Shown here: piece by piece, positions 3,790 through 20,000 of the stretch
Layout: the number at the start of each line of letters is the position of its first letter
How positions within the stretch are numbered: the stretch's first letter is position 1
Origin: Chiloscyllium plagiosum
Lineage: Eukaryota
NCBI RefSeq assembly: GCF_004010195.1
Contig: NC_057754.1
Coordinates: forward strand, 2,379,022-2,399,021
Direction of reading: 5' to 3'
Length of the DNA stretch: 20,000 nucleotides
Made by a program: the position numbers and the translations under genes
The notes under the pieces: model-generated
The model's input: the letters and a program-made list of their open reading frames with translations, nothing else
Told to the model about the DNA's origin: nothing
The model's database searches: none

Positions 3790-4306
3790 TTGGTAGACTG
3801 CACCTCGAATATTGTGTGCAATTTTGGTCCCCTTACTTTAGGAAGGATGTTATTGCCACAGAGGGAGAGGAAAAAAGTGTTCCCTGGACTATCTATGAAG
3901 AGAGATTAGAGAAATTGAGCCAGTATTCTCTAGAGCTTTGAAGAATGACGTGATTTCGTTGAGAACCCATGAAATACTTAAAGGGATAGACAGAGGAGAT
4001 GTGCTGGAAATCACAGTAGGTCAGGCAGCATCCATGGAGAACGTGCACACTAATGTTTCGAGTCTAGGTGACTCTGATGAAGAGACATCTCGACTCCAAA
4101 CATTAGCCTGTTCTCTCTGCACAGATGCTGTCTGACCCGCTGTGATTTCCAGCAATTTTTGTTTAGAATTCTCTCCACTCAGTCATTGGATATGTTTCAA
4201 ATAGAGATTGATAGATTTCTGAATGCCAATGACGAAAAGGATTTTGGAATGGTGTGGGAAAAAGACATTGAAGTGGATGGTCAGCCATGATAGTATGGAA
4301 TGGCAG
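3790..4306 (+). mobile_element. Old CR1 3' fragment, interrupted at ~4000-4165 and at 4307-6257 (continues at 6258-6328)
   Basis: 'LEYCVQFWSPYFRKDV' at ~3804-3851. CR1 3' UTR-type text 'GAGATTGATAGATTTCTG...CAGCCATGATAGTATGGAATGGCAG'. Confidence 0.8.
4002..4154. mobile_element. Head-to-head (palindromic) Penelope-like pseudo-LTR pair with decayed hammerhead motifs
   Basis: TGCTGGAAATCACAG (4002) and its reverse complement CTGTGATTTCCAGCA (ends 4154) form imperfect ~70-bp arms. CTGATGAAGAG lies at the centre (4074). Confidence 0.8.
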
Positions 4307-4373
4307 GAGGCTGGAAGAAGACAGCAAGCCAGGCAGCATCAGGAGATGGAGAAGTTGACGTTTTAAGCTAGAC

Positions 4374-4500
4374 CAAAAGTGAGGACTGCAGATGCTGGAG
4401 ATCAAGATTAGAGTGTTGCTGGAAAAGCACAGCAGGTCAGGCAGCATCCGAGGAGCAGAATAATCGACGTTTAGGGCAGGAGCACTTCATCAGGAATGAG
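4374..4500 (-). mobile_element. Solo Penelope-like pseudo-LTR (~130 bp) with a mutated hammerhead
   Basis: Minus strand reads ATTC-CTGATGA-A-GTGC-TCCT-GCCC-TAAA-CGTC-GATT (G12->T). Possible TSD AGCTAGA at 4366-4372 and 4515-4521. Confidence 0.85.
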
Positions 4501-4574
4501 GCCTACAACCTTCGAGCTAGAGGTCAGGGTGAGTAGTACAAGCTGCTAACCAAGTTAAGATTCAGGGTGAGTTT

Positions 4575-4845
4575 GAATGTTGACACCGAGGTTAGAATAA
4601 GACCAGATGCTGAGATTGGAAATCAGAGACAGTCCGGGTGTTAAGATTGGAGTTTAGAACACATCTGGGTATTAAGACTGGGGTTTAGGATAAAGCTGGG
4701 TGTTGAGACTGGGGTTCATTACCTACCTGGATGTTCAGAGCACTCCTGGATATTGAGACAAGAAATTTAGGATGTATCTCGGTATTGAAGGTGGGTTTTC
4801 AGCAACTTTCTGCCTATTGAGACTAGGGTTCAGGAAATCTCAAAG
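4575..4845. repeat. Highly degenerate ~31-bp minisatellite
   Basis: Recurring GG(G/A)T(G/A)TT(A/G)AGAYTGGRGTT(T/C)AG at ~31-bp spacing (e.g. ~4636, 4667, 4698, 4748, 4780, 4812). Confidence 0.75.
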
Positions 4846-5110
4846 TTATAATTAGGATTCAGGTGCACAGATGTAATTGTTTATTGAGTTTCTGAATCAA
4901 ATTAAAATTTGTTCAGGTTATCCTTATACTTTGCTATTGTAGGGATTGAGTTGAGTGATATCATCCAAATAAAAGCAGAAGTTGTTTGAAAGCCCCCAGT
5001 GTCTGTTAGGAAAATTGGGCTGGTAATGTTGAACAGAAGCCCTGTTCTACTGCAACAGTAGTAACCCTGCCAACTCTATGGGCATTTAAATGGTCATTGG
5101 ATAAACATAT

Positions 5111-5431
5111 GGGCAGCACGGTGGCTCAGTGGTTAGCGCTGCTGCCTCACAGCACCAGGGTCCAAGGTTCGATTCCAGCCTCGGGTGACTGTCTGTGTGG
5201 AGTTTGCACATTCTCCCCGTCTCTGCGTGGGTTCCTCCGGGTGCTCCAGTTTCCTCCCACAGTCCAAAGATGTGCAGGTCAGGTGAATTGGCCATGCTAA
5301 ATTGCCCATAGGTTAGGTGCATTAGTCAGAGGGAAATGGGTCTGGCTGGGTTACTCTTTGGAGGGTTGGTGTGGACTTGTTGGGCCAAAGGGCCTGTTTC
5401 CACACTGTAGGGAATCTAATCTAAAAATCTA
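5111..5431 (+). mobile_element. Full-length HE1-like tRNA-derived SINE
   Basis: Pol III A box TGGCTCAGTGG (5122-5132) and B box GGTTCGATTCC (5166-5176). V-SINE core, CR1-like tail 'GGGCCAAAGGGCCTGTTTCCACACTGTAGGGA' and terminal (AATCT)n. Confidence 0.95.
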
Positions 5432-5439
5432 ATATGGAT

Positions 5440-5530
5440 AATAATGGAGCAGGGTAGGATGAATAGGCTTCGGATTGGTTCCACAGGTCAGCACAACATC
5501 AAGGGCCGAAGGGCCTGTACTGCGCTGTAA
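5440..5530 (+). mobile_element. Short CR1-type 3' tail fragment
   Basis: 'CAGCACAACATCAAGGGCCGAAGGGCCTGTACTGCGCTGTAA' has the same terminal stem-loop motif as the other CR1/HE1 tails. Confidence 0.65.
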
Positions 5531-5701
5531 TAGAGTCATAGAGCTATAGAGATGTCTGTGTTCTCTCAGTGTAACCCTTCTTCAGGACTGAGGAAGGGTT
5601 ACACCCGAAAAGAAAGTGAGGTCTGCAGATGCTGGAGATCAAAGTTGAAACTTTATTGCTGGAACAGCACAGCAGGTCAGGCAGCATCCAGGGAACAGGA
5701 G

Positions 5702-5737
5702 ATTCGACGTTTCGGGCACAGGCCCTTCTTCAGGAAT
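5702..5737 (-). ncRNA. Minimal type I hammerhead ribozyme motif, intact core
   Basis: Minus strand reads ATTC-CTGAAGA-A-GGGC(CTGT)GCCC-GAAA-C-GTC-GAAT. Confidence 0.85.
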
Positions 5738-6051
5738 GAGCAGAGAGTGTTCAGCAGGAGAAAATAAAAGGTAGGGAGGAGGGACTTGGAGGAGGGGCGT
5801 TGGAAATGTGATAGGTGGAAAGAGGTCAAGATGAGGGTGATAGGTCGGAGTAGGATGGAGGCGGAGAGGTCTCTACTGGACCTCCAAAAGGACCTCTACT
5901 GTTCTTCATCCACAGAAGACCTCTCCGCCTCCATCCTACTCCGACCTATCACCCTCACCTTGACCTCTTTCCACCTATCACATTTCCAACGCCCCTCCTC
6001 CAAGTCCCTCCTCCCTACCTTTTATCTTCTCCTGCTGAACACTCTCTGCTC

Positions 6052-6087
6052 ATTCCTGAAGAAGGGCCTGTGCCCGAAACGTCGAAT
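6052..6087 (+). ncRNA. Minimal type I hammerhead ribozyme motif, intact core; predicted cleavage after C6083
   Basis: Stem I ATTC(6052-55)/GAAT(6084-87), core CTGAAGA 6056-62, extra A 6063, stem II GGGC/GCCC, GAAA 6076-79, palindromic ACGT helix III and GUC triplet 6081-83. Confidence 0.85.
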
Positions 6088-6257
6088 CTCCTGTTCCCTG
6101 GATGCTGCCTGACCTGCTGTGCTGTTCCAGCAATAAAGTTTCAACTTACACCCGAAACATCGACTTCTCCACCTCCTGATGCTGCCTGGCTTGCTGTGTT
6201 CTTCCAGCCTCCTGCTTATTTACCTTAGATTCCAGCATCTGCAGTTTTTTTGTCTCT

Positions 6258-6328
6258 ATGATAGTATGGAATGGCAGAACAGATTTGATGGACTAAATGG
6301 CCTGCTCTTGTTCCTATGTTTATGTTAT
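6258..6328 (+). mobile_element. Distal 3' end of the CR1 that starts at ~3790
   Basis: Continues from the second TSD copy: 'GGCAGAACAGATTTGATGGACTAAATGGCCTGCTCTTGTTCCTATGTTTATG'. Confidence 0.8.
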
Positions 6329-6939
6329 AATGGATTCAAAGTCTGCTCGCTCAATCATTGGCTAGATTTGAACTGCTTGGTCTATCGTTTGTCATTTGAA
6401 ACATTGGTAGTGTCAGACTACAAAATAGAAAGCATCTCTGTGATATAGACGAGATTTTCGTTTTCATTTAAACTGTATTATGGTCTTTTCTAATAACAAA
6501 TATTGTCGACAGCCATAATCAAAGATTCTGGGTGTTACTATTGAATTACCATCCAAAACTGTAGTGTTTCCTTTGAGCAATGTACACCCTGTAGCTGTAC
6601 TCATTCAGTTGAGGGACAGTGCTAACTGTGGTCAGCATGAGGTCTCTTTGACCTTGTTTGACCTGAAACTTTGAGAAAATCTGGGCCAATCCCTATGCAT
6701 CACTGTCTCTCCCACAACTGGTGGCTCTGACCTACTGTTGGGACATACCCATGGATGTTGATGAAGGAGTCTGGGATGAGGGCTAATAAATAGATTAATT
6801 CTGGGCAAGTGTGCAGAACAGTATCAGTCATCCAATGTCAATGAGGAGGAATTTACAAAGTTGATTGAAATTCCCATAATCTTATCTTGGTGTCCTTATC
6901 AGGAAATTATACACCAGTTAAGCCGAACATCTGGGAGAA

Positions 6940-7163
6940 TAAGGTCAGAAGTCAGACAACACCAGGTTATAGTCCAACAGGTTTAATTGAGATCACAAGC
7001 TTTTGGAGCATTGCCCCTTTGTTAGGTAGAGCGAGAGAGAAGCATACAGGCAGAGAATTTATGGGCAGAGAGATCAAAAAACCATACAAATGGTGTGAGT
7101 GGAGGGTCGAGAGGCTGAGTAATAAGTCTCTGCAGGAGATCATCAGAGTCAGACGGTGTGAGT
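6940..7163 (-). mobile_element. Penelope-like family B 3' UTR / pseudo-LTR with a decayed hammerhead
   Basis: Minus strand reads CTAACAA-A-GGGGC(AAT)GCTCC-AAAA-GCTT, then 'AAACCTGTTGGACTATAACCTGGTG', which is shared with 14930-15057. Confidence 0.75.
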
Positions 7164-7592
7164 AAAGTTGAGAGTGTGGTGCTGGAAAAGCACGGCAGGT
7201 CAGGCAGCATCCAAGGAGCAGGAAAATTGACATTTTGGACAAATGCCCTTGGTCAGGAATGAGGCTGGGAACCTTGGGAGTGGAGAGATAAATGAGAGGT
7301 GGGTGGGGCTGGGGAGAAAGTAGCTGAGAGTGCAATAGGTGGATGAAGGTGGGGGTAATGGTGATAGGCCAGAGAGGAGGGTGGAGCAGATAGGTGGGAA
7401 GGAAGATGGACAGATAGGACAGGTTGTGAGGGCAGTGCTAAGCTAGAAGGTTGGAACTGGGATAAGGTGAAGGGAGGGGAAATGAGGAAACTGGTGAAAT
7501 CCACATTGATGCCATGGGGTTGGAGGATCCCAAGGCAGAAGATGAGGCGTTCTTCCTCATGGGTGATAAGGGAGTGGTGAGGGAGGAGGCCC
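7164..7592 (-). mobile_element. Penelope-like family A 3' fragment: endonuclease C-terminus, pyrimidine-rich UTR and pseudo-LTR
   Basis: 'EEERLIFCLGILQPHGINVDF' (~7496-7558) matches the PLE GIY-YIG C-terminal E...L..L.P.G.N motif. It is followed by a pLTR homologous to 5642-5740, with a decayed hammerhead at ~7226-7260. Confidence 0.85.
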
Positions 7593-7730
7593 TCCATTTA
7601 TCTGTTCTCATAGCGTCTGCATGGTCTCGGCAATATACCATGCCTTGGGGGGTCCTTGCCTGCAGCATATGAGGTAGACAACATTGGCCAAGTTACTTGC
7701 CGTGTATGTGATGGGTGTGTTCCCACGGCA
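7593..7730 (-). pseudogene. Penelope-like GIY-YIG endonuclease N-terminal remnant
   Basis: Translating 7688->7593 gives ANVVYLICCRQGPPKAWYIAETMQTL*EQING, i.e. VVY...YI(G)ET with an in-frame stop. Confidence 0.85.
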
Positions 7731-7859
7731 GATACTCATGTATCTTCCTTACTGTCCTGTTTTGGCATCATCGCCTTGAAGAATTGTTACGATCTCTCAG
7801 CTTAAGTAGCTTGTACAGTTTTAGATTACTTATTACTGGTTAGACCCTCGGTATGTGAC

Positions 7860-8366
7860 TCTTAATGGCTCCTGGGCTCAGGGATAGCCAATTTAGAAAC
7901 AATGGAATATCCTGAAGATTCAGCCAGGATGAGACCACCACACAGGCCTGCTAGAATATTGGGCCAGAAACCACTCCTAAGAAGACCAGCATGCTGGGCC
8001 AAGACTGCTAACCCAGGACAAGAGTGCCAGGCTGAGCCAAGACTGCCTTTCTCCTTCAGGCCCCCAGGCCGAGCTGCAGACATGGAGTCTCAGCCTAACC
8101 TGCAGGTCCAGGCAAGGGGAGTCAGCCCGGGACCTTCTCCTCACTCACTAGGAGACCCCGGGCTGGGGTGGAACTGGGTCCAGCTCGACCTGGTGGTGGT
8201 GCCACTGCCACCACGGGAGGCATCCTCCTTCACCCACCACTCTCCAGGCTTAAAAGAAAAAACAAAACAAAACCAGCAAAAGTGAAAAGAAGGCAAGAAA
8301 GAAAGAAAGCTGACGGGAGTGGACAAACCTCGGGCTCAGGCCCCTTGCTCCACCACCTCCTTGAAA
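7860..8366 (-). repeat. Probable GC-rich interspersed repeat (non-autonomous or LINE 5'-like), family not identified
   Basis: Abrupt GC-rich block. On the minus strand it begins CAAGGAGGTGGTGGAGCAAGG (resembling an AAGATGGCGG-type retroelement 5' start), followed by a T-rich tract. No coding homology recognised. Confidence 0.35.
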
Positions 8367-8939
8367 GAAGAGTTTAAGAACACAATCCTTTATTAGGGAA
8401 CAATTTTCAAATTTTTTTTTATTGGATGATAGCTTGGAATTCCTGGGCTGGCTCCATATCCTGAGCAGCTGGTCCTGGTTTGGCTGTGCATTCTAGCTGC
8501 CTGCTTTGTGGCCGGCTTTACGCTGTCACAAGCTGGTTTGTGGGTTGACTCCGCACCCTGACATGTGTCGCCTTGGCCCCTAGATGTAATTTTCTGAGGA
8601 ATTATGCTACTAACAGAATAATTAAGCCAGCTGAATTCATCATGGCCTGTCTGAGCACACAAAGGCTAAAGGTTGATGGCTTGGTCGGCTCCACCACATC
8701 ACTCGAGAGTAACACATTGCTCCTGGATTCCATATTCAGCTCATTTCTTCTCAATGAATCCATTGCACGGGGATTAAGTGACTGTTATCCAGGGGAGAGG
8801 CAGACACTTTTCATCTGCTGGCCACTAAGCCAAATGTTGGAATGGATATCTGGACTCTGACCTCACCAGTCTTCGTGGTGTTTAGACAGAATATTTTACT
8901 TTGCAGTCACCACATATTTTTGTTTTTATTTATGCATTT

Positions 8940-9110
8940 TGTGGGATGTGGGTGTCGCTGACTAGCAGCATTTATGGCCCGTTATCCATTGCCCTTGAGA
9001 AGGTGGGTATGAGGTGTCTTCTTGAACCACTGCAGTCCACCTGCTTTGGCTTGACTCACAATGCCCTTAGGGAGGGAATTCCAGGATTTTGACCCAGTGA
9101 CAATGAAGGA
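8940..9110 (-). mobile_element. 3' end of a LINE (CR1/L2 group), copy 1
   Basis: Minus strand encodes 'SFIVTGSKSWNSLP...LQWFKKTPH.HLLKGN'. Homologous to 9185-9485. Confidence 0.75.
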
Positions 9111-9184
9111 GTATATCCAGGAGGAGGCAGGAATTTTTGGCTGTCACTCATATACAGTATTTGGAATAATTGCATTAATTGTAG

Positions 9185-9485
9185 GCGTGGGTCTGGCCAT
9201 CCCTAGTTGCCCGTGAGAAGGCGGTGGTGAGCACCCTTCTTGAACCACAGCAGTCTATGTGGTGTAGGTGTGCGCACACAGTGCTGTTAGAGAGGGAATT
9301 CCAGGATTTTCACCCAGTAACACTGAAGTAAAACAGCGAAAAACTTCCGAGTCAGGAAGTGAGTGGCTCGGAGGGAAACTTGCACGGGTTGGCGTTCCCA
9401 TGTACCTGCTGCTCTTGTCTTTCTAGATGGAAGTGGCTTTGGTGAATTTCAGCAGTGAATTTGGTAGATAGAACATACTGCTGCA
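9185..9485 (-). mobile_element. 3' end of the same LINE family, copy 2
   Basis: Shares 'GCCC(T/G)TGAGAAGG...TTCTTGAACCAC..CAGTC' and 'GAGGGAATTCCAGGATTTT(G/C)ACCCAGT' with 8940-9110. Confidence 0.75.
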
Positions 9486-9549
9486 AATGCAGCTAATGAG
9501 AATAATAGCAGAACTGAAAGGTGAGGTCAGGAAGGGTTATGAGGTACAA

Positions 9550-11394
9550 TTTTTAACATTACAAACATTGACTGGGATTGCCATAGTGTTAAGGGTTGAG
9601 ATGGAGAGGAATTTGTTACGTGTGTACAAGAAAGGTTTCTGAGTCAGTATGTGGATGTACCTACCTAGAGAAGGTGCAAACCTTGACCTACTCTTGAGAA
9701 ATAAGGCAGGGCAGGTGACTGAGGTGTCAGTGAGGGCTTGGAAGATATAGAATGTAGGGAAATAAATGGTGACATCTTGAAAAATGTCCATATTACAGAG
9801 GAGGAAGTGCTTGAAACAGGTAAAGATGGATAAATCCCCAGGACTTGCTCAGGTGTATCATAGATCTCTGTGGAAAGCTAGAGAAGTAATTGCTGGGCCT
9901 CTTGCTGAGATATTTGTATCATCGATAGTCACAGGTGAGGTGCCGGAAGACTGGAGGTTAGCTAACATGGTACCACTATTTAAGAAAGTTGGTAAGGACA
10001 AGCCAGGGAACTGTATACCAATGAGCCTGATATCGGTGATGTGCAAGTTGTTGGAGGGAATCCTGAGGGACAGGATGTACATGTATTTGGAAAGGCAAGG
10101 ACTGATTAGGGATAGTCAATATGGCTTTGTGCGTGGGAAATCATGTCTGACAAACTTGATTGAGTTTTTTGAAGAAGTAACAAAGAGGATTGATGAGGGC
10201 AGAGTGCTAGACGTGATCTGTATGGACTTCAGTAAGGCGTTCGACAAGGTTCCCCATGGGAGACTGGTGACCAAGGTTAGATCTCATGGAATACAGGGAG
10301 AACTAGCCATTCGGATACAGAACTGGCTCAAAGGTAGAAGGTGGTACTTGAGGGTTATTTTTCAGACTGATGGCCTGTGACCAGTGGAGTGTCACAAGGA
10401 TCGGTGCTGGGTCCACTACTTTTCATCATTTATATAAATCATTTATATAAATGCAAGCATAAGAGGTATTGTTAGTAAGTTTGCAGATGACACCAAAATT
10501 GGAGGTGTAGTGGACAGCAAAGAAGGTTACCTCAGATTACAACAGGATCTTGACCAGATGGGACAATGGGCTGAGGAGTGGCAGATGGTGTTTAATTCAG
10601 ATAAATATGAGGTGCTGCATTTTGGGAAAGCAAATCTTAACAGGACTTATACACTTAATGGTTAAGGTCCTAGGGAGTGTTGCTGAACAAAGAGACCTTG
10701 GAGTGCAGGTTCATAGCTCCTTGAAAGTGGAGTCGCAGGTAGATAGGATAGTGAAGGTGGTGTTTGGTATGCTTTCCTTTATTGGTCAGAATACGGAGTA
10801 CAGGAGTTGGGAGGTCATATTGTGGCTGTACAAGCCATTGGTTAGGCTCCTGTTGGAATATTGCATGCAATTCTGGTCTCCGTCCTACCGAAAAGATGTG
10901 AAACTTGAAAGGGTTCAGAAAAGATTTACAAGGATGTGCCAGGGTTGGAGGTTTTGTGTTATAGGGAGGGGCTGAATAGCTTGGGGCTGTTTTGCCTGGA
11001 GCATCGGAGGCAGAGGGGTGACCTTATAGAGGTTTATAAAATCATGAGGGCCGTGGGATAGGGTAAATAGACAAAGTCTTTTCCCGAGGTGGGGGAGTCC
11101 AGAACTGGAGGGCATAGGTTTAGGCTGAGAGGGGAAAGATACAACAGAGACCTAAGGAGCAACATTTTCACGCAGACGATAGTGCCTGTATGGAATGAGC
11201 TGCCAGAAGAAGTGGTGGAGGCTGGTACAATTGCAACATTTAAAAGGCATTTGGATGGGTATATGAATAGGAAGGGTTTGGAGGGATATGGGCCGGGTGC
11301 TGGCAGGTGGGACTAGATTGGGTTGGGATATCTGGTTGGCATGGACGGGTTGGACAGAAGGGTCTGTTTCCATGCTGTATATCATTATGACTCT
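9550..11394 (+). mobile_element. CR1-clade (HER1-like) LINE, 5'-truncated and frameshifted RT pseudogene
   Basis: APE-end remnant 'GFLSQYVDVPTREGANLDLLL' (with a frameshift). ORF 9784-10380 contains KSPG, VPEDWRLA, QYGFVRGKSCLTNL and MDFSKAFDKVPH. Downstream are SQGSVLGP (~10393), FADDTK (10480-10497), LEYCMQFWSP, WNELPEEVV and a 3' tail with TATGACTCT. Confidence 0.97.
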
Positions 11395-11844
11395 TTGACT
11401 CCAATTGTGTCCATCTAAATCTCATTGGCCTCTGATAGAAGTCTTCAATCTTACAAAAGAGACTTGCTGAGCAAAACATAGAGAAGCTATTTTCATCTGT
11501 GGGCATTATTAGGGGCCAACAATAAAAATAATAATGGATAACTTTGAACATGTCTTCAGAAATTTGGGGGTTGGTTCTAGGTGGTGTTTCAGGATGGGGA
11601 TCAGTTGGCAGCCTACTGAGTCTGAGAGTTTCTAGTTCAGAGGTGGACAGCAAAGGGCCAAAAGCCTACTTCCGTCCTCCTGCATTTTGTTGCGGTTTTG
11701 AAAAACTTGAATGAAAGTGTAATAACTCAGATCACCCAAGTGGAAAGGAACATGGTTTATTGTTGGACATCAACACAGAGCGACTGCTCATGGCGTACAT
11801 CGGCTGATCCCAGCCTGAGACAGACAGTTCTGTCGAACCATCCC

Positions 11845-12236
11845 ATTTTTTAATCAACTTGTTCCACATTCCTGATGAAGAGCTTATGCTCAAAACGTCG
11901 ACTGTCCTGCTCCTCGAATGCTGCCTGACCGGCTGTGCTTTTCCAGCACCACAGTTTTTGACTTTGATCTCTAACATCTGCAGTCCTCACTTTCTCCTAA
12001 TGTTATTACACTCCCTCTGAGCAGGTGGAATGTGAACCTAGGTCTCCTGGCTCAGAATTAGAAACACTACCACTGCACCACAAGAACCCCTAGGTCTGTT
12101 CTTTTTTAATACAACCTATTTTTCAAACCAACCTATTCAGTAACGATGTTAATACACACCTCTGGAATAGGTGGGATTTGAACCTGGGCTCCCAATCCAG
12201 GAGTAGGGACTCTACCTTGGCACCACAAGAGGGCCC
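11845..12236 (-). mobile_element. Dimeric tRNA-derived SINE, with the downstream monomer interrupted by a PLE pseudo-LTR
   Basis: Two homologous minus-strand heads: TCTTGTGGTGCCAAGGTAG...GGTTCAAATCCCACCT (12236->12120) and TCTTGTGGTGCAGTGGTAG...GGTTCACATTCCACCT (12090->12001, continuing at 11866->11845). Each has A- and B-box-like motifs. Confidence 0.75.
11867..11998 (+). mobile_element. Solo Penelope-like pseudo-LTR with a near-intact hammerhead
   Basis: ATTC-CTGATGA-A-GAGC(TTAT)GCTC-AAAA-CGTC-GACT (G12->A, consistent with CpG decay), then GATGCTGCCTGACC-type body to CTGCAGTCCTCACTTT. Confidence 0.9.
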
Positions 12237-12931
12237 GAGGTCTGCTTTATATTACGTGTTCAGGTGATGAGTTCCAGCTACTGGTCATTGCCTGTTGCCA
12301 AGGGAACACATACACAACAAGCTTCACAAAGCAATTAATCAGTGATTCCCCATGGGCCTTATAGGGATTATCACAGAAAGGAATGCACAGCTGTCGAGCC
12401 TGAACCCCCACACGCTTCCCATCCCCAGCTTCATCCACCTTATGCTCCCTGCTCGCCCTCCAGTAGTCTTTCACATTCTCCTTGCCAACACATGCCCTTC
12501 CATCCTCTGACTTCACACCCCCATGCCAACTCACCCATTATCCACAGTGGACAGAACTCAAGAACCATGCTGAGATTAAATAAAGTTGTTTGTTCTCATA
12601 TTTCAAAAAGCGCACTCTCATTGGCAAAACCTCATTCCTTTACTTTCTTTAATTCTTATAAAAACATCTATTTGTATTCATAGTTCCCATTTCAAGGACT
12701 TTATAAGCTGCCATTCAGACTATGAGCTGGCAAGCACCCCACTGTGAACATGGTAAGTTGTGAATCAGGCATGCAGCACTCATTCTGTGATGATAATCCA
12801 CAAGTTAGTGACAACCATTCGTGTGAAATAACAAGCACCGATTGTTTAACAGAGATTTTTCAGATATTTAAAGGACAGGAAATTGAAATGACTTGAGAGC
12901 TTCCCAAAAGAATTATGGAACCAAAACCAAA

Positions 12932-13260
12932 AGCACAGCGAGGTGGCTCAGTGGTTAGCACTTCTGCCTCACAGTGCCAGGTACCCAAATTCGATTCCAC
13001 CTTCGGGCAACTGGCTGTGTGGAGTTTGCATATTCCCGCTGGGTCTGCGTGAGTTTCCTCTCACAGCCCAGGGATATTAGTAGGATTGCCCATGCTAGAA
13101 AATTGCCCATAGTGTCCATGGATGTGCAAGCTAGGTGGGTTAGCCATGGCAAATGCAGGGTTTCAGGGATAGGGGACCGGGTCTGGGTGGGTTGCTCTGA
13201 GGACGGTCAGTGTGGATTCAATGGGCTGAATGGCCTGCTTCCATGCTGCAGGGAGTCTAT
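12932..13260 (+). mobile_element. HE1-like tRNA-derived SINE (diverged, small internal deletion)
   Basis: A box TGGCTCAGTGG, B box-like AATTCGATTCC, core TGTGTGGAGTTTGCA and tail GGGCTGAATGGCCTGCTTCCATGCTG. Confidence 0.9.
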
Positions 13261-13539
13261 TTGTACCTTGCCTCTTCAAAGAGCCCAAACTCTCCAAAAA
13301 ACACCAGTAAGCTTTGACCTTTTCCAACCGGTTCTGAAGTACATCAGCCGTGTTTTGGATCCAGCCTCCCCCACTGAGTGAGAATCAGATCAGACCACAA
13401 GAAGCTGCAGTTTAATGTGTGCAGTTGCCTCCTTGAACCACCGATGTGCCAATTACAACCTGCTCCATTCCCTTCCACCCTGTGAAAACAGCAGGGCCAG
13501 GTTGGGATGCATGATCTTCACATTTTCACTCCATTGCTA

Positions 13540-13700
13540 AAATAGAGCGCTTCTCCATCCTGCCCACTCAGGTCTCTGGGTTCATGTGACACTCCAGGCC
13601 ATTTACCTCACTAGTGTTTGTGGGAGCTTGCTGTGTGTCTGTGACTAAAGTTGGAGAGTGCTTTGGGGCACCCTACATAACTGCAAGTCCTTATTGTTTG
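13540..13700 (+). mobile_element. Possible ancient Deu-domain SINE / L2-tailed SINE remnant
   Basis: 'TGTTTGTGGGAGCTTGCTGTGTG' and '..GTGCTTTGGGG..ATAACTGCAAGTCCTT' resemble the 3' part of DeuSINEs. Heavily deleted. Confidence 0.4.
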
Positions 13701-14059
13701 TAGTGATGTGTCTCTGGGCTAAGATTTCAAAATGGCAATCAGCTCATCAGTCTCTGTGTGTTGGGTTCAGCTTTAATCTGCCATGCAGGCCTTCGTGGTG
13801 TGCGCATCAAAGATATCAGTTCAACAGCTCACCTTAATTGGCTATGTGGAATAGGGAGTATCATCATAATCTGTGCCCTATCAGGTCTCACATAAACATA
13901 CAGAAGTCTCTGCCGATAGGAGAAGACAGAACCTCTCCCTAGACAGCCATAATGTTTGGCTCATGTTACCACACATTAGTATACAATATTGAGTTTAGCT
14001 ATTCATTCTCGTACCAGTCTGCTCCACCTCACTCCCAAAGCTTTGGTCAATAGGCACTA

Positions 14060-14360
14060 TTGAGACAGTAGGATCCCAGGTGGAGTCCCTGGTCTGTGCT
14101 GAGGTTAAGTTTCATAGCAGTTGGTGTCAGTGTCTCTAAGGTAGGGATGTAGAATTTGAGTCAGAGTTCCAGTTCCCAATCCCTCCTCTGTGACCTCCAT
14201 TGGAACGTCAGGTCCTTTGTCACATCCTCCCTGGTTAAGAGCTTGTCAACATTCCCACACAACGCTGACCCATAAGTTGGGGTGGAGGAGTGGTCAACCA
14301 CCAAAGGCCTGTTAGAAATCCTTGTTAAAAAACAGCATCTTCAGGAGAGTATAGAGAAAG
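14060..14360 (+). mobile_element. Possible ancient tRNA-derived SINE remnant
   Basis: B-box-like 'CCCAGGTGGAGTCCCTGGTCTGTGCTGAG' and a terminal 'CAGCATCTTCAGGAGAG'. Recognition is from memory of fish/shark SINEs only. Confidence 0.35.
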
Positions 14361-14929
14361 TCCCAAGAGAAAAACTCTTCAAAAATAAGGCAAAGAATAA
14401 TTCTTCATTGGCCAGCTGTTCCCATGTTTTCACAGGAGTCTCTCTCTTTTTCTGTCTAGCTGCGGGAGCAGCTGCAGTCTGGCAGTGGAGTGATTTGTGG
14501 TTCTTGGTCCGACTCTCAGCCTTTCTAAATTTGTGTTCTATTTTCTACAAATGCACCTTTTCCAAGTTGAATTGCCTCCACGTCTACTTTCTGACAGAGT
14601 CAGTATGCTCGCAAATAGATTTGTAAAGTGTTGCAGTGAATATTGACATTCGAGTGCACTGTGCTGTGATTGCAAGAGCAGCACTACCACTTGAACAGAA
14701 TTGTGTTGCTGAAGGACAACAGGCAGTCAGCTGGCACCTATGTGCAAAATGGAGGGTGATACAGACTGCTTATTTCTGTAATGTCAAGCAGATGTTGGCC
14801 TGGTACTTGGGATCACAGGTAGATACATTGTGGGAATGTAAAATGAGAAAAGGTATCTCACCTTAGGCAGGAAATATTTGGAAGGAGCTCAGCCTATATT
14901 TCCCAGAATGATGGCTGCATAGACTCGAA

Positions 14930-15057
14930 AGATTGATGTGGAGGAGCCAGTGTTGGACTGGAGTGGACACAGTCAGAAGACACACGACACCAGGTTATAG
15001 TCCAACAGGTTTATTCAAAATCACAAGCTTTTAGAGCACTGCTCCTTCGACAGCTGA
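14930..15057 (-). mobile_element. Solo Penelope-like family B pseudo-LTR with a decayed hammerhead
   Basis: Minus strand reads CTGTCGA-A-GGAGC(AGT)GCTCT-AAAA-GCTT-GTGA. 'ACACCAGGTTATAGTCCAACAGGTTTA' is identical to 6959-6985. Confidence 0.8.
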
Positions 15058-15128
15058 GTAGGGACTGCAGGAGATTACAGACATAGGAAGGGATTAAGAG
15101 GAAGTGACAGGGATAGGAAATGTTGGAC

Positions 15129-15490
15129 CATAAGACACTGGAACAAAAAGGAACCATTTAGCCTTGTGAGTCTGCTCCATCTTTCAGTGAGATCATAGCT
15201 GATCTGATCACCCACAACTCCATTTTCATGCCTTTTCCTGAGAACGCTCAATTCCCTTCCTGATGAAAAATCTGTCTATCTCAGCCTTAATTAGACATAA
15301 TGACCCAGCCTTGACAGCACTCTGCAGTAAAGAATTCCATAGATTCATGGCCCTGTACGAGAAGAAATTACTCCTCATCTCTGTATTAAACAGGTGACTA
15401 CTTACTCTGAGATGATGCTGTCTGATCCTAGACTCTCCCGCAAGGGGAAATAACCTTTCCACATTTACCCTGTCAAGCCCTCTAATAACC
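15129..15490 (-). mobile_element. CR1 LINE 3' end
   Basis: ORF 15226-15462(-) reads 'RLFPLAGESRIRQHHLRV...RSNFFSYRAMNLWNSL...IKAEIDRF', the CR1 ORF2 C-terminus. The 3' UTR ends ...TCTTATG. Confidence 0.9.
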
Positions 15491-15864
15491 TGAGTCTTTT
15501 ATATTCCAGTTGGCTGACTGGGGAAAGGAAGCAGGATTGGCAAAAGGAAGCAGGCTGCCTGGGGAAGAGTGGAAGGGCCAGACTGTTCAGGTATTAGTAC
15601 CCACCCTGACAGATGGCTTAATACTCCTGTCTCACAGGAAATGAATGCCTGAATGGGTGCTTTCTAGATGGGACACCAGAACCTTTGACCCCATGAGGTA
15701 ACGCTGGGCTGCTGACTCCTTACCTGTCCAGGTTCCAAAATTCAGGCAGCCAATCCCGTTCACAAATATAATGAGAAGTGCAAGTAAAGCCTGCCCAGCC
15801 ACGTCCCCAAGCCAAAACAACACTCTCTTCCACCATCTCTGCCAAATGTCGCCTCCATAATGGG

Positions 15865-16085
15865 TGGTTTCACTCAAAAAGACTGATCAAGGTTTGGAAT
15901 GTTCGACCACACATGGCCATTCATGCTAGATCAGTTATGAACTTCAAATCGTTCCCTGACAGTTTTTGTAAATTAAAGATCCTGAGGAATATGGGGTAAA
16001 GGTGGGTGTAAGGAGGAAGGTTGCAGATCAGACATGATCTCATTGACAGGCAGAACACGTTCAAGTGGGTGAATGTTCCAACATT
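15865..16085 (+). mobile_element. Old CR1 3' fragment
   Basis: 'TTCACTCAAA...AAGGTTTGGAAT' followed by 'GAGGAATATGGGGTAAAGGTGGG...GCAGATCAGACATGATCTCATTGACAGGCAGAACA'. Confidence 0.65.
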
Positions 16086-16596
16086 CTTAAGAACTCTGCT
16101 CTGAATACACCTCGACACAGATCTATCTTGGGAATGATACACACTTGTTACTTCCACATGCTGGAACCATATGGCAACTACTGCCAGCTCATTTCCGTAT
16201 CCACCAGGGATCTTGCCTTCTTATCATCACTTTAAATTAAAAGACTGCAGTTCGCTCCAGCTCATTTCAGCAGCAGTTGGCGAGGAGTGTTCTTGGCCAG
16301 CAGGTATCATGGTTGTGCCATCTCCATCTGCCAGTGGCCATGCCTTGGTAAGTAGCTGCTGACAGTGCCTGCACAGTACCCCAGTGCTGTGACCCTGGAC
16401 CAGGATAAGGAAGGCCACTTGGTTCCTCTGATCTGAATGAGATTTTAACCACCAACGACATAATCCTGCAGCACCCCACAAAGGTCGGTAAGCTTATAGA
16501 GCACAGGTTTGAGTAGGAGAAACCTCCCATTCATACAGCACTTTTCACAACTTCAGGATGTCTCAATAAAACACTAATTAAGTATATGCTGGAAGA

Positions 16597-16809
16597 GTAC
16601 TGATATAACGTGATGGTTTCATTCCCGTGTGATTTCCGCGTTATAAGAAAAGCGTGTAATAGCAGCATCATTGAAACCAATGGGACCAGAGTTGTGTTAT
16701 AACCAATTCGGTAAGTAAATTCGTGTTCTACAAATAATGGTCTAAATTCTTCAACTGCATTATAGTCAATTCACGTTTAATAAATGTGCATTATAGCAGA
16801 ACCAACTGT
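16597..16809. mobile_element. Probable Tc1/mariner (Tigger/pogo-like) MITE
   Basis: The right end reverse-complements to (A)CAGTTGGTTCTGCTATAATGC. The left end GTACTGATATAACGTG is a degenerate partner. Internal repeats of G(C/T)(G/A)TTATA(A/G). Confidence 0.55.
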
Positions 16810-17029
16810 GATAGTAAATTACACATGGCTGTTGGGGAGTTGTTGTAAACCACTCTGAGACAATTGGTTAGATTCATATAGTATCCATTCAAAAGGCTGT
16901 TAATGTAATGTCTCAGCAGCAGCAATAAGCACCTCTTCGAACCATTTCACTCTGTTTTGGTTTTCCTGGCGCTATTCATAAAAATATAAAAGACAGGAAA
17001 AGATCTTTATTATGCCGGACCATTCAATA

Positions 17030-17164
17030 AGTTCATGTCTAATCTTTGACTTCACTTCCACCATCTCAACCAATGGTCCCTACCTCTTCATTCAAGTCAG
17101 TCAAGTCTATCCATCTCAGTTTTGAATTCACAGGGGCAGAGAATACTCAAAAATGTACAACACT
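17030..17164 (-). mobile_element. Old CR1 3' fragment
   Basis: 'TCTATCCATCTCAGTTTTGAAT...GGGGCAGAGAATACTC' parallels 15271-15345. Confidence 0.45.
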
Positions 17165-17167
17165 TTA

Positions 17168-17642
17168 TTGAAAGGGTTCAGAAAAGATTTACAACAATTT
17201 TACCAGAGTTGGAGGGTTTGAGCCAAAGGGAGGGGCTGGGATTATTTTCCCTGGAGTGTTAGAGGCTGAGGGGCAATATTTTAGAGTTTTATAAAATCAT
17301 GAGGGGCATGGTTAGGATGAATTGCCAAGGTCTTTACCCCAGTGTAGGAGAGTCCAAAAGTAGAGGGCATAGGTTTAAGGTGAGAGGGGAAAGATTTAAA
17401 AGGGAACCATGGGGCAACTTTTTCACGTAGAGGGTGGTGCGTGTTTGGAATAAGCTGCCAGAGGAAATGGTAGAGGATGGTAAAATTACAATATTTAAAG
17501 GCATCCAGATGGGTATATGAATAGGAAAGTTTCGAGGGATATGGGCTAAGTGCTGGCAAATGGAACTAGATTAATTTAGGATATCTGGTCGGTATGGACA
17601 AGTTGAACCAAATGGTCTGCTTCTGTTTCTCTATGACTCTAT
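17168..17642 (+). mobile_element. CR1 (HER1-like) 3' end, same family as 9550-11394
   Basis: Starts TTGAAAGGGTTCAGAAAAGATTTACAA (identical at ~10905), is collinear to the tail and ends CTATGACTCTAT. Confidence 0.95.
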
Positions 17643-18244
17643 AATAAGGTCCTTTCCTGTTTACAAATTTGTTTTTAATTGGAAAGGAAACAAGCAGATT
17701 CATCAATTCTGCTTGAACATGGAAGTTTCATCAAATGGCTTTGAGCATCTCGGACAAGCAGCCACATTTACACATCAGTTGCATTGGTAATCAAATTTTG
17801 TGTTCATAGGTCAGTGCCCTGGAGATCTGATTCCTGGCAAATCCATGGAATGTCCAGGAAGGACCCTCAGGAACTCTCAGAACAAAGCCCAAAAGTGACC
17901 AGAGCATTTCCAATACTGGGCACAGAGTCCAGTGGAAAGGGTCCACAAAGTGTGTGGAACACAGGGGACGAAGCCTTCAAGATAATTAGTAGGCAAAATG
18001 TCAATTTCAAAGAAAATCGATTGGATGAGTAAAAAGCACAAGTTCATTGTCTGTTCCTTTTATTGCAGGCTTTTCCCTGTATCTCAACTGGAATTTACGG
18101 TAAGTAGTAATGCCTTGTTATTAATTCTTAAACTTTTTGCCCAGCAAGTTAAAACAATGTTTTACAGCGTTGGTTGCAGTCAGGTGTGGGAATATACTAC
18201 TGGGGGCAAAACATTCAGATCCTGTCCAGACCACATAAAGACTG

Positions 18245-18530
18245 TATAGTCACAGGGCAACAGGAGGAGTCTGTTCAGCTCCTGATCCATATCATAATTC
18301 CACCTACTGGTCTCAGTTTGATATCCCTTCATTCCCTTTCCCAAACAAAACAGTCTACCAATCTCAGCTTTGACATCTGCAGGCAGCCTTTCAACATCAG
18401 CTTCTTGTGGGGAGAGAACGGCAGATTCCCACTCCCTTTCTGTGAAGTAGTTCTTCATGAGTGGCCCAGCTGTTAATGTTCTAGCCACTTGTTCTGGACT
18501 TTTCCAACTTGGAGATAGAAACTCCCTGCC
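18245..18530 (-). mobile_element. Old CR1 3' end
   Basis: Minus-strand 'MKNYFTERE...VKAEIGRLF..GKGMKGY' resembles the CR1 ORF2 C-terminus (RNFFTQRV...FKAEIDRF...KGIKGY). Confidence 0.6.
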
Positions 18531-19071
18531 GAACAGCGTTACTAGATTCCAAACCTGTTTTCTGCGTTCCCACCTCTTGCTTCTGAGCGATTCCAAACCG
18601 ACCTGTGAAAGATTGCGACCTAAACATTGCCAAACCAGCCACTTAATGCAATAACCTGGGAATGATACAGCAAAACAGATATAGAGTCTTTCAGGGTCTT
18701 CACTGTATATTTTTATGAAGTCTCCAGGCTAAATGACACTGAATAAGTCAGTAAAAATGAAATGATACACCTTCTTTAAATAATCAAACCGGATTCCACT
18801 TAGACCTTGCTTCAGTTTTCTGGCATGAAATATAAGTGGCTCGAGGCGGGTCATTGGGCTCTTGGTAGGATACTGACAGGCAATTTGTATGCAGATTTTC
18901 TCCATAAGTCCTTGCTGAATCTACAAGAGTGTTTATCAGGCTTCTTAGAGCTCCAGAACTCTCAGTATTCATGTGTGAAAGATCGTTTAGGTTTCTCACT
19001 GGGTAAAAATGCAGCAAGTGCATTCACAGCGTTTGTTTTTAACTGATCCTGCTGCTGCTGATTGCTGAATG

Positions 19072-20000
19072 TAGGACATTGGTACAGGGAGAATGGGTTT
19101 GTGTTAATGTGTAATGTTTGGAAAGGGAGGTTGGGTTTGTGGTAATGAGTGATTTTGGAACAGGGAAGCTGAGTGTGTTAATGAGTGACATTGGTACAGG
19201 GAAGGTGAGTGTGTTAATAAGTGACATTGGTACAGGGAGGCTGAGTGTGTTAGGGAGTGACATTGGTACAGGGAGGTTGAGATTGTGTTAATGAGTGACA
19301 TTGGCACAGGGAGGCTGAGTGTGTTAATGAGTGACATTGGTACAGGGAGGCTAAGTGTGTTAATGAGAGACAAAGGGACAGGCAGGCTGAGTGTGTTAAT
19401 GAGCTTTATTCCTAATGAAGGGCTTTTGCCCGAAACGTCGATTTCGAAGCTCCTTGGATGTTGCCTGAATTGCTGTGCTCTTCCAGCACCACTAATCCAG
19501 AATCTGGTTTCCAGCATCTGCAGTCATTGTTTTTACCTCACTGGTACAGGAAAGCTGAGTGTGTTAATGAGTGACATTGGTACAGGGAGGTTGAGTTTGT
19601 GTCACTGAGTGATTTTGGAACAGGGAGGCTGAGCGTGTTAATGAGTGACATTGGTACAGGGAAGTTGAGTGTGTTAATGAGTGACATTGGTACAGGGAGG
19701 CTGAGTGTGTGTTAATGAGTGACATTGGTACAGGGAGGTTGAGTTTGTGTTAATGAGTGACATTGGTACAGGGAGGTTGAGTTTGTGTTAATGAGTGATT
19801 TTGGAACAGGGAGGCTGAGTGTGTTAATGAGTGACATTGGTACAGGGAAGGTGAGTGTGTTAATGAGTGACATTGGGACAGGGAGGCTGAGTGTGTTAGG
19901 GAGTGACATTGATCCAGGGAGGCTGAGTGTGTTAATGAGTGACATTGGTACAGGGAGGTTGAGTTTGTGTTAATGAGTGACATTGGTACAGGGAGGTTGA
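19072..20000. repeat. 36/38-bp minisatellite (TAATGAGTGACATTGGTACAGGGAGGCTGAGTGTGT), running off the window end
   Basis: About 20 well-conserved units. 38-bp variants end GAGTTTGTGT. The array explains the 12-aa periodic ORFs. Confidence 0.98.
19404..19538 (+). mobile_element. Solo Penelope-like pseudo-LTR with a near-intact hammerhead, inserted in the minisatellite
   Basis: ATTC-CTAATGA-A-GGGC(TTTT)GCCC-GAAA-CGTC-GATT (G5->A), with body homologous to 11867-11998. Confidence 0.9.

Follow-up and report, generated by a model that had tools for sequence, protein, structure and literature searches.

Minimal hammerhead motifs in Penelope-like retrotransposon stubs of Chiloscyllium plagiosum, likely copied from uncut RNA

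Hammerhead-like motifs are scattered over a 20,000-nucleotide stretch of contig NC_057754.1 (2,379,022–2,399,021) of the shark Chiloscyllium plagiosum (3.56-Gb genome), which we analysed as a whole and call the window (19,391 non-N bases; positions count from its first letter). The motifs are almost certainly minimal type I hammerhead ribozymes (min-HHRs) in the pseudo-long terminal repeats (pLTRs) of several Neptune-type Penelope-like element (PLE) families. We hold as very probable the combined statement that several such families, with a min-HHR in the pLTR, left short, mostly decayed stubs whose likely template was the uncut 5′ end of the element's RNA. Published work is cited from excerpts of the papers and preprints named.

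Hammerhead-like copies in the window

An initial annotation had listed eleven hammerhead sites, and we found a hammerhead-like motif at each position and on each strand that it gave. Ten of the eleven differ from a family pattern by at most 4 substitutions, against 0 such matches in each of 40 Markov shuffles of the non-N bases; the eleventh, at 5585 on the minus strand, is a 5′ half only. Under a strict descriptor, CUGANGA, stem II and GAAA are all kept in only three copies (5588 plus, 5733 minus, 6056 plus), and helix III, the cleavage triplet and helix I are additionally kept in only two, at 5702–5737 (minus) and 6052–6087 (plus). The same two alone combine intact CUGANGA and GAAA boxes with an NUH triplet; the other nine are broken by core mutations or split. 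Core changes fall at G5, A6, G8 or G12, mostly at the CpG formed by C11.1 and G12. The two intact motifs sit one in each arm of a single 231-nt, 99% inverted repeat (5642–5872 / 5917–6147). As a whole, the copies in the window are unremarkable stubs in decay. An Rfam scan of the window returned 25 matches at E ≤ 10, none of them to a hammerhead family; its matches to miRNA families were rejected, as they reflect the 231-bp fold-back. The pieces are as follows.

4002–4154, no strand assigned: old fold-back pLTR stub of the GAGTC/GACTC family, a 78% inverted repeat, 3 substitutions from the family pattern
4074–4103, plus: degenerate motif of that stub, with G12C and a stem mismatch; 5′-truncated partner on the minus strand
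4287–4365, minus: minus arm of the GGGT/ACCC fold-back, likely its 3′ half (inverted repeat 4303–4363 / 6155–6215, 93%)
4376–4501, minus: family A pLTR stub with tail; motif 4462–4497, C3 at 4493, inactivating G12T and G10.2T
5569–5590, minus: 5′ half of the GGGT/ACCC minus-arm motif (helix I strand, CUGAAGA, A, GGGT), C3 at 5585
5588–5610, plus: 5′ part of the GGGT/ACCC plus-arm motif (core, stem II, GAAA), G16.2A, split by a younger insertion
5611–5872, minus: minus arm of a young A1 fold-back with 3′ tail (5611–5641); intact motif 5702–5737, C3 at 5733, predicted cut after C17 at 5706
5917–6147, plus: plus arm of the same fold-back, without tail; intact motif 6052–6087, C3 at 6056, predicted cut after C6083
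6146–6265, plus: remainder of the split GGGT/ACCC stub, helix III decayed to ACAT
6944–7164, minus: family C (AGCT) 3′ untranslated region (UTR) and pLTR; motif 6993–7027, C3 at 7025, G5A, G8A and G12A; 79% to the 3′ UTR downstream of a GIY-YIG fragment in genome locus L285
7165–7597, minus: 3′ end of a family A element, with GIY-YIG end (7440–7597), 3′ UTR and motif 7226–7260, C3 at 7256, G8C and G12A; 74–76% over about 430 nt to genome loci bearing reverse transcriptase (RT) and endonuclease (EN)
7598–7870, no strand assigned: family C element remnant, with a GIY-YIG fragment (~7600–7700, minus) and an oppositely oriented arm (~7740–7865)
11864–11998, plus: GAGC/GCTC family stub with tail; motif 11868–11903, C3 at 11872, lone core change G12A
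14972–15057, minus: family C (AGCT) stub starting at C3 (15053); motif 15021–15057, A6T, C11.1T and G12A
19404–19540, plus: family A3 stub with tail, inside a 36-bp satellite; motif 19408–19443, C3 at 19412, lone core change G5A; 91–96% to pLTRs of RT/EN-bearing loci

Several of these pieces are nested. The insertion 5611–6145 interrupts the 5588 plus motif directly after GAAA and is flanked by a 12-bp target duplication (5599–5610 / 6146–6157), so that an older PLE hammerhead carries a young PLE fold-back within its catalytic core. At 7165–7597, a piece of family A lies inside a family C element. The minus arm of the GGGT/ACCC fold-back (4287–6265) is split by about 1.2 kb, which separates the 4287–4365 piece from its likely 5′ half and includes a family A stub, a repeat resembling a short interspersed element (SINE) and some 550 nt for which the genome loci compared offer few matches.

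Carrier elements

The initial annotation had placed the motifs in PLE pLTRs of several families, and this was borne out: the motif lies in the 3′ UTR or pLTR, downstream of an open reading frame (ORF) with RT and GIY-YIG domains. In the window itself, the minus strand at 7440–7597 encodes the terminal part of a GIY-YIG endonuclease, with the 7256 motif lying downstream of it, and at ~7600–7700 a second, different GIY-YIG fragment. A genome search with the window's endonuclease-type fragments brought up carrier loci. One of them, L093, N-free and broken, holds a DKG motif, an RT (YIDD), a CX4CxxC-type linker and the EN, with a GGGC/GCCC motif about 300 nt downstream. Of two related stop-free stretches, one (L094) matched Pfam RVT_1 below the cut-off and the other (L057) matched GIY-YIG above it. 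Longer homologues, of 810–900 aa, combine RT and GIY-YIG; among those that are named, carpet-shark proteins come closest, with 91% and 65%. The family C motif likewise follows a GIY-YIG fragment (L285), and its linker finger, found in L286, reads CCHRNLCKTC, compared with CHRRNCKTC in family A; the ENs of the two families are only about 30% alike. RT, then a C-terminal GIY-YIG, with the motif in the 3′ pLTR, is the arrangement drawn from L093, L094, L057 and L285, in which every recovered copy is broken or gapped.

A CX2–5CxxC linker finger marks Neptune or Nematis (PMC8557442), and our Neptune-type label would fit either of these two clades. The shark elements share with EN-bearing Neptune/Nematis PLEs the C-terminal GIY-YIG, the DKG motif and the linker finger, and also 5′ truncation, an inverted partner and a 30–40 nt tail at one end; they differ in showing clear target duplications without the microsatellite targeting described for Neptune/Nematis (PMC8557442).

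Motif families and their helices

The initial annotation regarded the nucleotide after CUGANGA as a tolerated variant known from a viroid. It is instead a published hallmark of PLE min-HHRs: the extra nucleotide, the G10.1–C11.1 pair and the palindromic helix III all stand in the consensus CUGANGAH (Cervera 2014, PMC4209133). That an extra A always follows CUGANGA held for the position; CUGANGA itself is broken in four window copies. One family has a U at this position, not an A, with a 6–7 bp stem and 4,819 exact sites genome-wide. This extra-U family (L245–L250, L070, L072, L143) is absent from the window and varies between U-A, U-G and C-G at one stem II pair.

The stem II variants GGGC/GCCC, GAGC/GCTC, GGGT/ACCC and GGAGC/GCTCC are real differences between families, and the covariation read from them by the initial annotation was upheld. 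In a count anchored on the catalytic core, over 11 subfamily groups of at least 3 copies each, 85 of 99 helix pairs are kept, against a shuffle mean of 53 and a maximum of 67 in 20,000, although the shuffle ignores relatedness of the subfamilies and the groups were gathered with patterns already containing a paired stem II. Compensatory changes occur at I.1 (C-G/A-U/U-A), at II.3 (G-C/A-U/U-G) and at 15.2–16.2 (CG/GC, in ACGT/AGCT); the helix III palindrome is ACGT or AGCT in eight of the 11 groups and the CpG-decayed ACAT in three.

These features are those of the min-HHRs of PMC4209133, which have type I topology, CUGANGAH, G10.1–C11.1, palindromic 15.2–16.2 and a short helix I, and which also form several covarying families per genome, mostly as single truncated copies with some opposite-strand pairs. 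An Acropora digitifera Neptune entry there (CUGACGAA GGGC UAAC GCUC) is nearly the same as shark family A/B; as far as the excerpts of its alignment and Table S1 go, no cartilaginous fish is among the entries.

Numbers genome-wide

We counted exact patterns over the whole genome, with the reversed pattern as control. The pattern CTGANGAAG-N8-14-CGAAA gave 103,608 + 103,080 = 206,688 intact-core sites, and its reversed control 297 + 324 = 621; sites without the extra A numbered 3,310 (control 2,322). The GGGC/GCCC family accounts for 93,870 sites; in 70,570 of these, two pairs of helix I and the GUC triplet are intact as well. The anchor of the young A1 subfamily occurs at 22,289 sites. For a random sample we took 89 arbitrarily placed 10-kb stretches of large contigs (876,178 non-N bases). 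Here 25 of 56 general-pattern matches were complete, or roughly 90,000 genome-wide by extrapolation, and recognisable motifs (at most 4 substitutions) numbered 153, that is 175 per Mb, with 0 in the control. The window is about threefold denser than this rate. One motif per 2 kb, as first estimated, is right locally when dead copies are counted; genome-wide, recognisable motifs occur once per 5.7 kb and intact cores once per 17 kb. The very large ribozyme load claimed at the same time stands as a motif count, but 'load' overstates function, given neutral decay, few neighbours and fold-back sequestration.

Reported min-HHR counts are about 4,000 in coelacanth and about 9,000 in Xenopus (PMC4209133), and the 28-Gb axolotl genome has 126,247 canonical motifs (PMC7229834). 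Approximate as the comparison is, since descriptors differ, it suggests that shark min-HHR motifs per Mb are far above those of the surveyed fish and amphibian genomes. Like the shark motifs, non-LTR retrozymes are type I hammerheads in PLE-related high-copy repeats (PMC7229834; bioRxiv 10.64898/2026.07.22.740005); they differ in being head-to-tail tandem units with mostly canonical motifs, whereas the shark stubs stand alone or head to head and carry minimal motifs. The window contains no head-to-tail tandem array of hammerhead units, and of 37 intact sites in the random sample only 2 lie within 1 kb of another intact site on the same strand. The survey in bioRxiv 10.64898/2026.07.22.740005 included one chondrichthyan. 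Our search of the open literature, which leaves subscription journals, Repbase/Dfam and preprint supplements outside, found no account of PLE hammerheads in sharks, nor of 5′ ends coinciding with the edge of the ribozyme. To this extent the suggestion that the families and their density may be uncharacterised holds for this shark; the class itself, with its diagnostic features, is known.

Decay of inserted copies

Among 78 copies of family A, 17–27% are changed at the CpG positions C11.1, G12, C15.2 and G16.2, and 0–8% at the remaining positions from G8 to U16.1; the rate from C3 to A6 is raised by 5′ truncation. Inserted copies decay neutrally, including catalytic G12 at its CpG. Because they do so while the helices covary between families, we infer that selection acts on the transposing masters: core and helices would be kept there only, and inserted copies left to decay.

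Could the masters keep the motif for a non-catalytic role, as a promoter or protein-binding element that merely looks like a hammerhead? The motif does overlap the inferred start site (see below), insertion in vitro proceeds without need of cleavage (PMC11167929), and Naiad PLEs thrive without a hammerhead (PMC8557442). However, the catalytic boxes are the same in all families, which were collected by requiring those boxes, while helices I–III change by compensation, and core mutants abolish cleavage in anole Poseidon (PMC11167929). We consider such a look-alike improbable.

Where young insertions begin

We measured 98 of the first 100 A1 anchors listed on contig C1, with positions given relative to the cut site, on a reference that reaches to +95. 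On the 3′ side, 45 copies end at +57 to +73 and 53 at +91 to +95, two ends about 35 nt apart that correspond to the PLE tail. The 5′ ends lie at −35 to −26 in 56 of the 98, with peaks at −31 and −32, in the 5′ strand of helix I; none starts at the cut site and two start at +1. Per nucleotide, the 5′ end rate was 0.123 in this hot spot versus 0.003–0.009 elsewhere, including 0.009 at −2 to +2. In the random sample, 64 of 115 scored copies (from 151 anchors) end at −40 to −21, and in family C 38 of 81 end at −42 to −26, the 81 being all loci gathered and not a random set. The ribozyme edge in family A is the initiator-like TCATTCC. Most young copies begin at the first letters of the ribozyme (within 10 nt of its first nucleotide), not at its cut site, run unbroken across that site, and were likely copied from uncut RNA. 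The excerpts of PMC4209133 contain no account of where truncated copies begin.

With the same PLE identity, the 5′ pile-up might reflect RT stalling, or cDNA snap-back with microhomology, at the TTCCTGAAG region and not a start site. An inverted partner lies upstream of 51 of the 98 A1 copies, with junctions at self-complementary letters, solo junctions often share 2–5 nt with the target, and the ends, distributed over 10 nt, have another mode at −26. Yet solo copies without inversion have the same hot spot: of 42 that are shorter than the reference, 24 end in it (mode −32), and 19 of the 42 show a target duplication of at least 7 nt. The hot spot is also present in family C, whose flank differs and whose EN is dissimilar, and an RT that reached the 5′ strand of the ribozyme would already have unwound it. 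We regard stalling or snap-back as possible, and tentative at best.

Had the ribozyme cleaved a sizeable share of template RNAs in vivo, the genome would record this as copies starting at the cut site. A targeted search for copies truncated at −4 to +10 returned 1,230 sites, and of 100 listed, whose start positions were read by eye and for the first 30 also checked by script, the largest group, 15, starts at position 0; in the random sample, 8 of the 115 scored copies end at 0 to +4. However, +5 holds 14 of the same 100, and of the 15 at position 0, two are internal deletions and seven are fold-back junctions, where the inverted arm and the GAAT of helix I overlap. The unselected A1 copies, with none beginning at 0, show only background at −2 to +2, no family C copy among the 81 ends at 0, and RNA reads cross the site without a pile-up of ends. 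Looked for in four ways, the cleavage footprint at the cut site is weak at best, and the excess is largely explained by helix I microhomology. That templates are cleaved to a sizeable extent in vivo is thus unlikely.

RNA reads and predicted folds

For RNA we used one raw single-cell poly(A) run with the same species label, of which about 2% was read. On 5917–6147 fell 325 reads, from both strands. At L093 the depth rises about tenfold at the ribozyme, again on both strands, and the best-supported 5′ loose end among those listed is L093:4272, the A of ATTC (129 reads). This pattern agrees with read-through of many stubs beginning at the ribozyme edge and indicates neither a start site nor cleavage. 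Over the RT/EN region of L093 (2790–3900) the reads are strand-biased, about 1.3- to 6-fold by bin, in a direction that depends on library design.

The 36-mer monomer is predicted to fold with helices I and II at −7.1 kcal/mol; for the dimer, the double hammerhead is predicted at −13.1 versus −18.3 kcal/mol for the best dimer fold. When 5642–6147 is folded, the plus-strand motif is fully paired with the antisense arm (P(stem II) 0.0); the fold predicted for the window's intact pair is a 231-bp hairpin that sequesters both motifs. A 31-nt exon at 18069–18099 (plus), between AG and GTAAGT, encodes AFPCISTGIYG, identical to MACROD2 at 11 of 11 residues (E 0.12), so the window is probably intronic, within a MACROD2-like gene.

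Might the dispersed copies, then, be working ribozymes that process host transcripts, such as local pre-mRNA, and are kept by selection? There are about 70,000–90,000 complete motifs, RNA comes from both strands, and the probable introns lie on the plus strand. Against this, nine of the eleven window copies are broken, and G12 is changed in 17% of family A, as other CpG letters are. The only intact plus-strand copy is the one with no predicted stem II, same-strand partners within 1 kb are as rare as given above (2 of 37), and published min-HHR monomers did not cleave (PMC4209133). We find this role very hard to credit.

Other repeats

A satellite of 36–38 bp, in about 25 units, fills 19075–20000 and is interrupted by the hammerhead stub 19404–19540. 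Fragments of long interspersed elements lie at 9781–11390, with an RVT_1 match at 9781–10380, and at 17168–17625; we take both to be CR1/L2-like. The SINE-like repeat of about 320 bp has three copies (2412–2737, 5103–5425, 12925–13266), in which ARAGORN found no tRNA gene, and resembles shark HE1. In the random sample, one locus (L024) is a stretch like an LTR retroelement or provirus, with gag-, pol- and env-like frames.

Discussion

What mechanism would leave so many stubs with a whole ribozyme? We lean modestly towards run-off. Transcription would start at or just before helix I; the element's RT would prime within the RNA, some 60 or 95 nt beyond the cut site, in the way demonstrated in vitro for anole Poseidon, and run off the RNA 5′ end to give a cDNA of 95–130 nt; this short cDNA would integrate directly or after snapping back. 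Because run-off at an uncut 5′ end would place the whole ribozyme in most insertions, it would explain the huge count. If cleavage occurs at all, it would require a dimer or the protein of the element and would probably take place on tandem transcripts, not on stubs. In its most explicit form, the proposal is that the ribozyme is the first 36 nt of the pLTR transcript, with helix I over the initiator, that strong-stop-like cDNA is made from capped, uncut RNA, that self-cleavage is rare, and that the genome holds a record of 100,000 events of PLE reverse transcription; we put this at barely better than even.

Several published observations bear on the run-off proposal. The anole element PAc (Anolis carolinensis; Frangieh et al. 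2024, PMC11167929) initiates reverse transcription internally, has unprocessed RNA as its dominant substrate and shows protein-assisted cleavage. It resembles the shark elements in its two 3′ ends defining a tail, its AT-rich junctions, an apparently uncleaved RNA template and the lack of RNA ends at the cut site; it differs in belonging to the Penelope/Poseidon clade and in having been tested in vitro, whereas in the shark the 5′ ends of genomic copies were mapped. Min-HHR dimers cleaved weakly (PMC4209133), an internal promoter lies in the pLTR of Drosophila Penelope (PMC2377424), and rotifer PLEs form fold-backs and 8–10 bp duplications (PMC3846280). The downstream element RGACGTGY of Drosophila Penelope (PMC2377424) was considered and rejected: only 5 of 8 letters match at the GAAACGTC box, out of register.

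Other observations weigh against this account. At the 5′ junctions, family C has the same edge without the initiator-like word TCATTCC; an untemplated G at −32 (11 G versus 5 A, p = 0.024) is suggestive at most and partly explained by microhomology with inverted arms; and AT or ATT microhomology at many junctions could bias ends towards ATTC. In the RNA, no pile-up of read starts or ends was seen on 5917–6147, and reads from both strands fit passive read-through. As to the carriers, no intact full-length ORF was recovered, because long copies in this assembly contain gaps: nine genome loci seemed to hold long 'open frames', but these turned out to be assembly gaps and were rejected as full-length elements, 26 further loci hold only broken or gapped ORFs, L093 among the broken ones with frameshifts and stops, and candidate long copies in a pLTR-ORF-pLTR arrangement are interrupted by assembly gaps.

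If the run-off account is true, the genome of C. plagiosum, with about 58 intact cores per Mb, would owe to it a load of ribozyme motifs among the densest reported for any vertebrate. More than 22,000 near-identical young copies let the ends of template RNAs be read from the genome. By this record the template would usually hold the whole uncut ribozyme and end at its first nucleotide, which fits the in vitro work on anole Poseidon and would give a precise start site.

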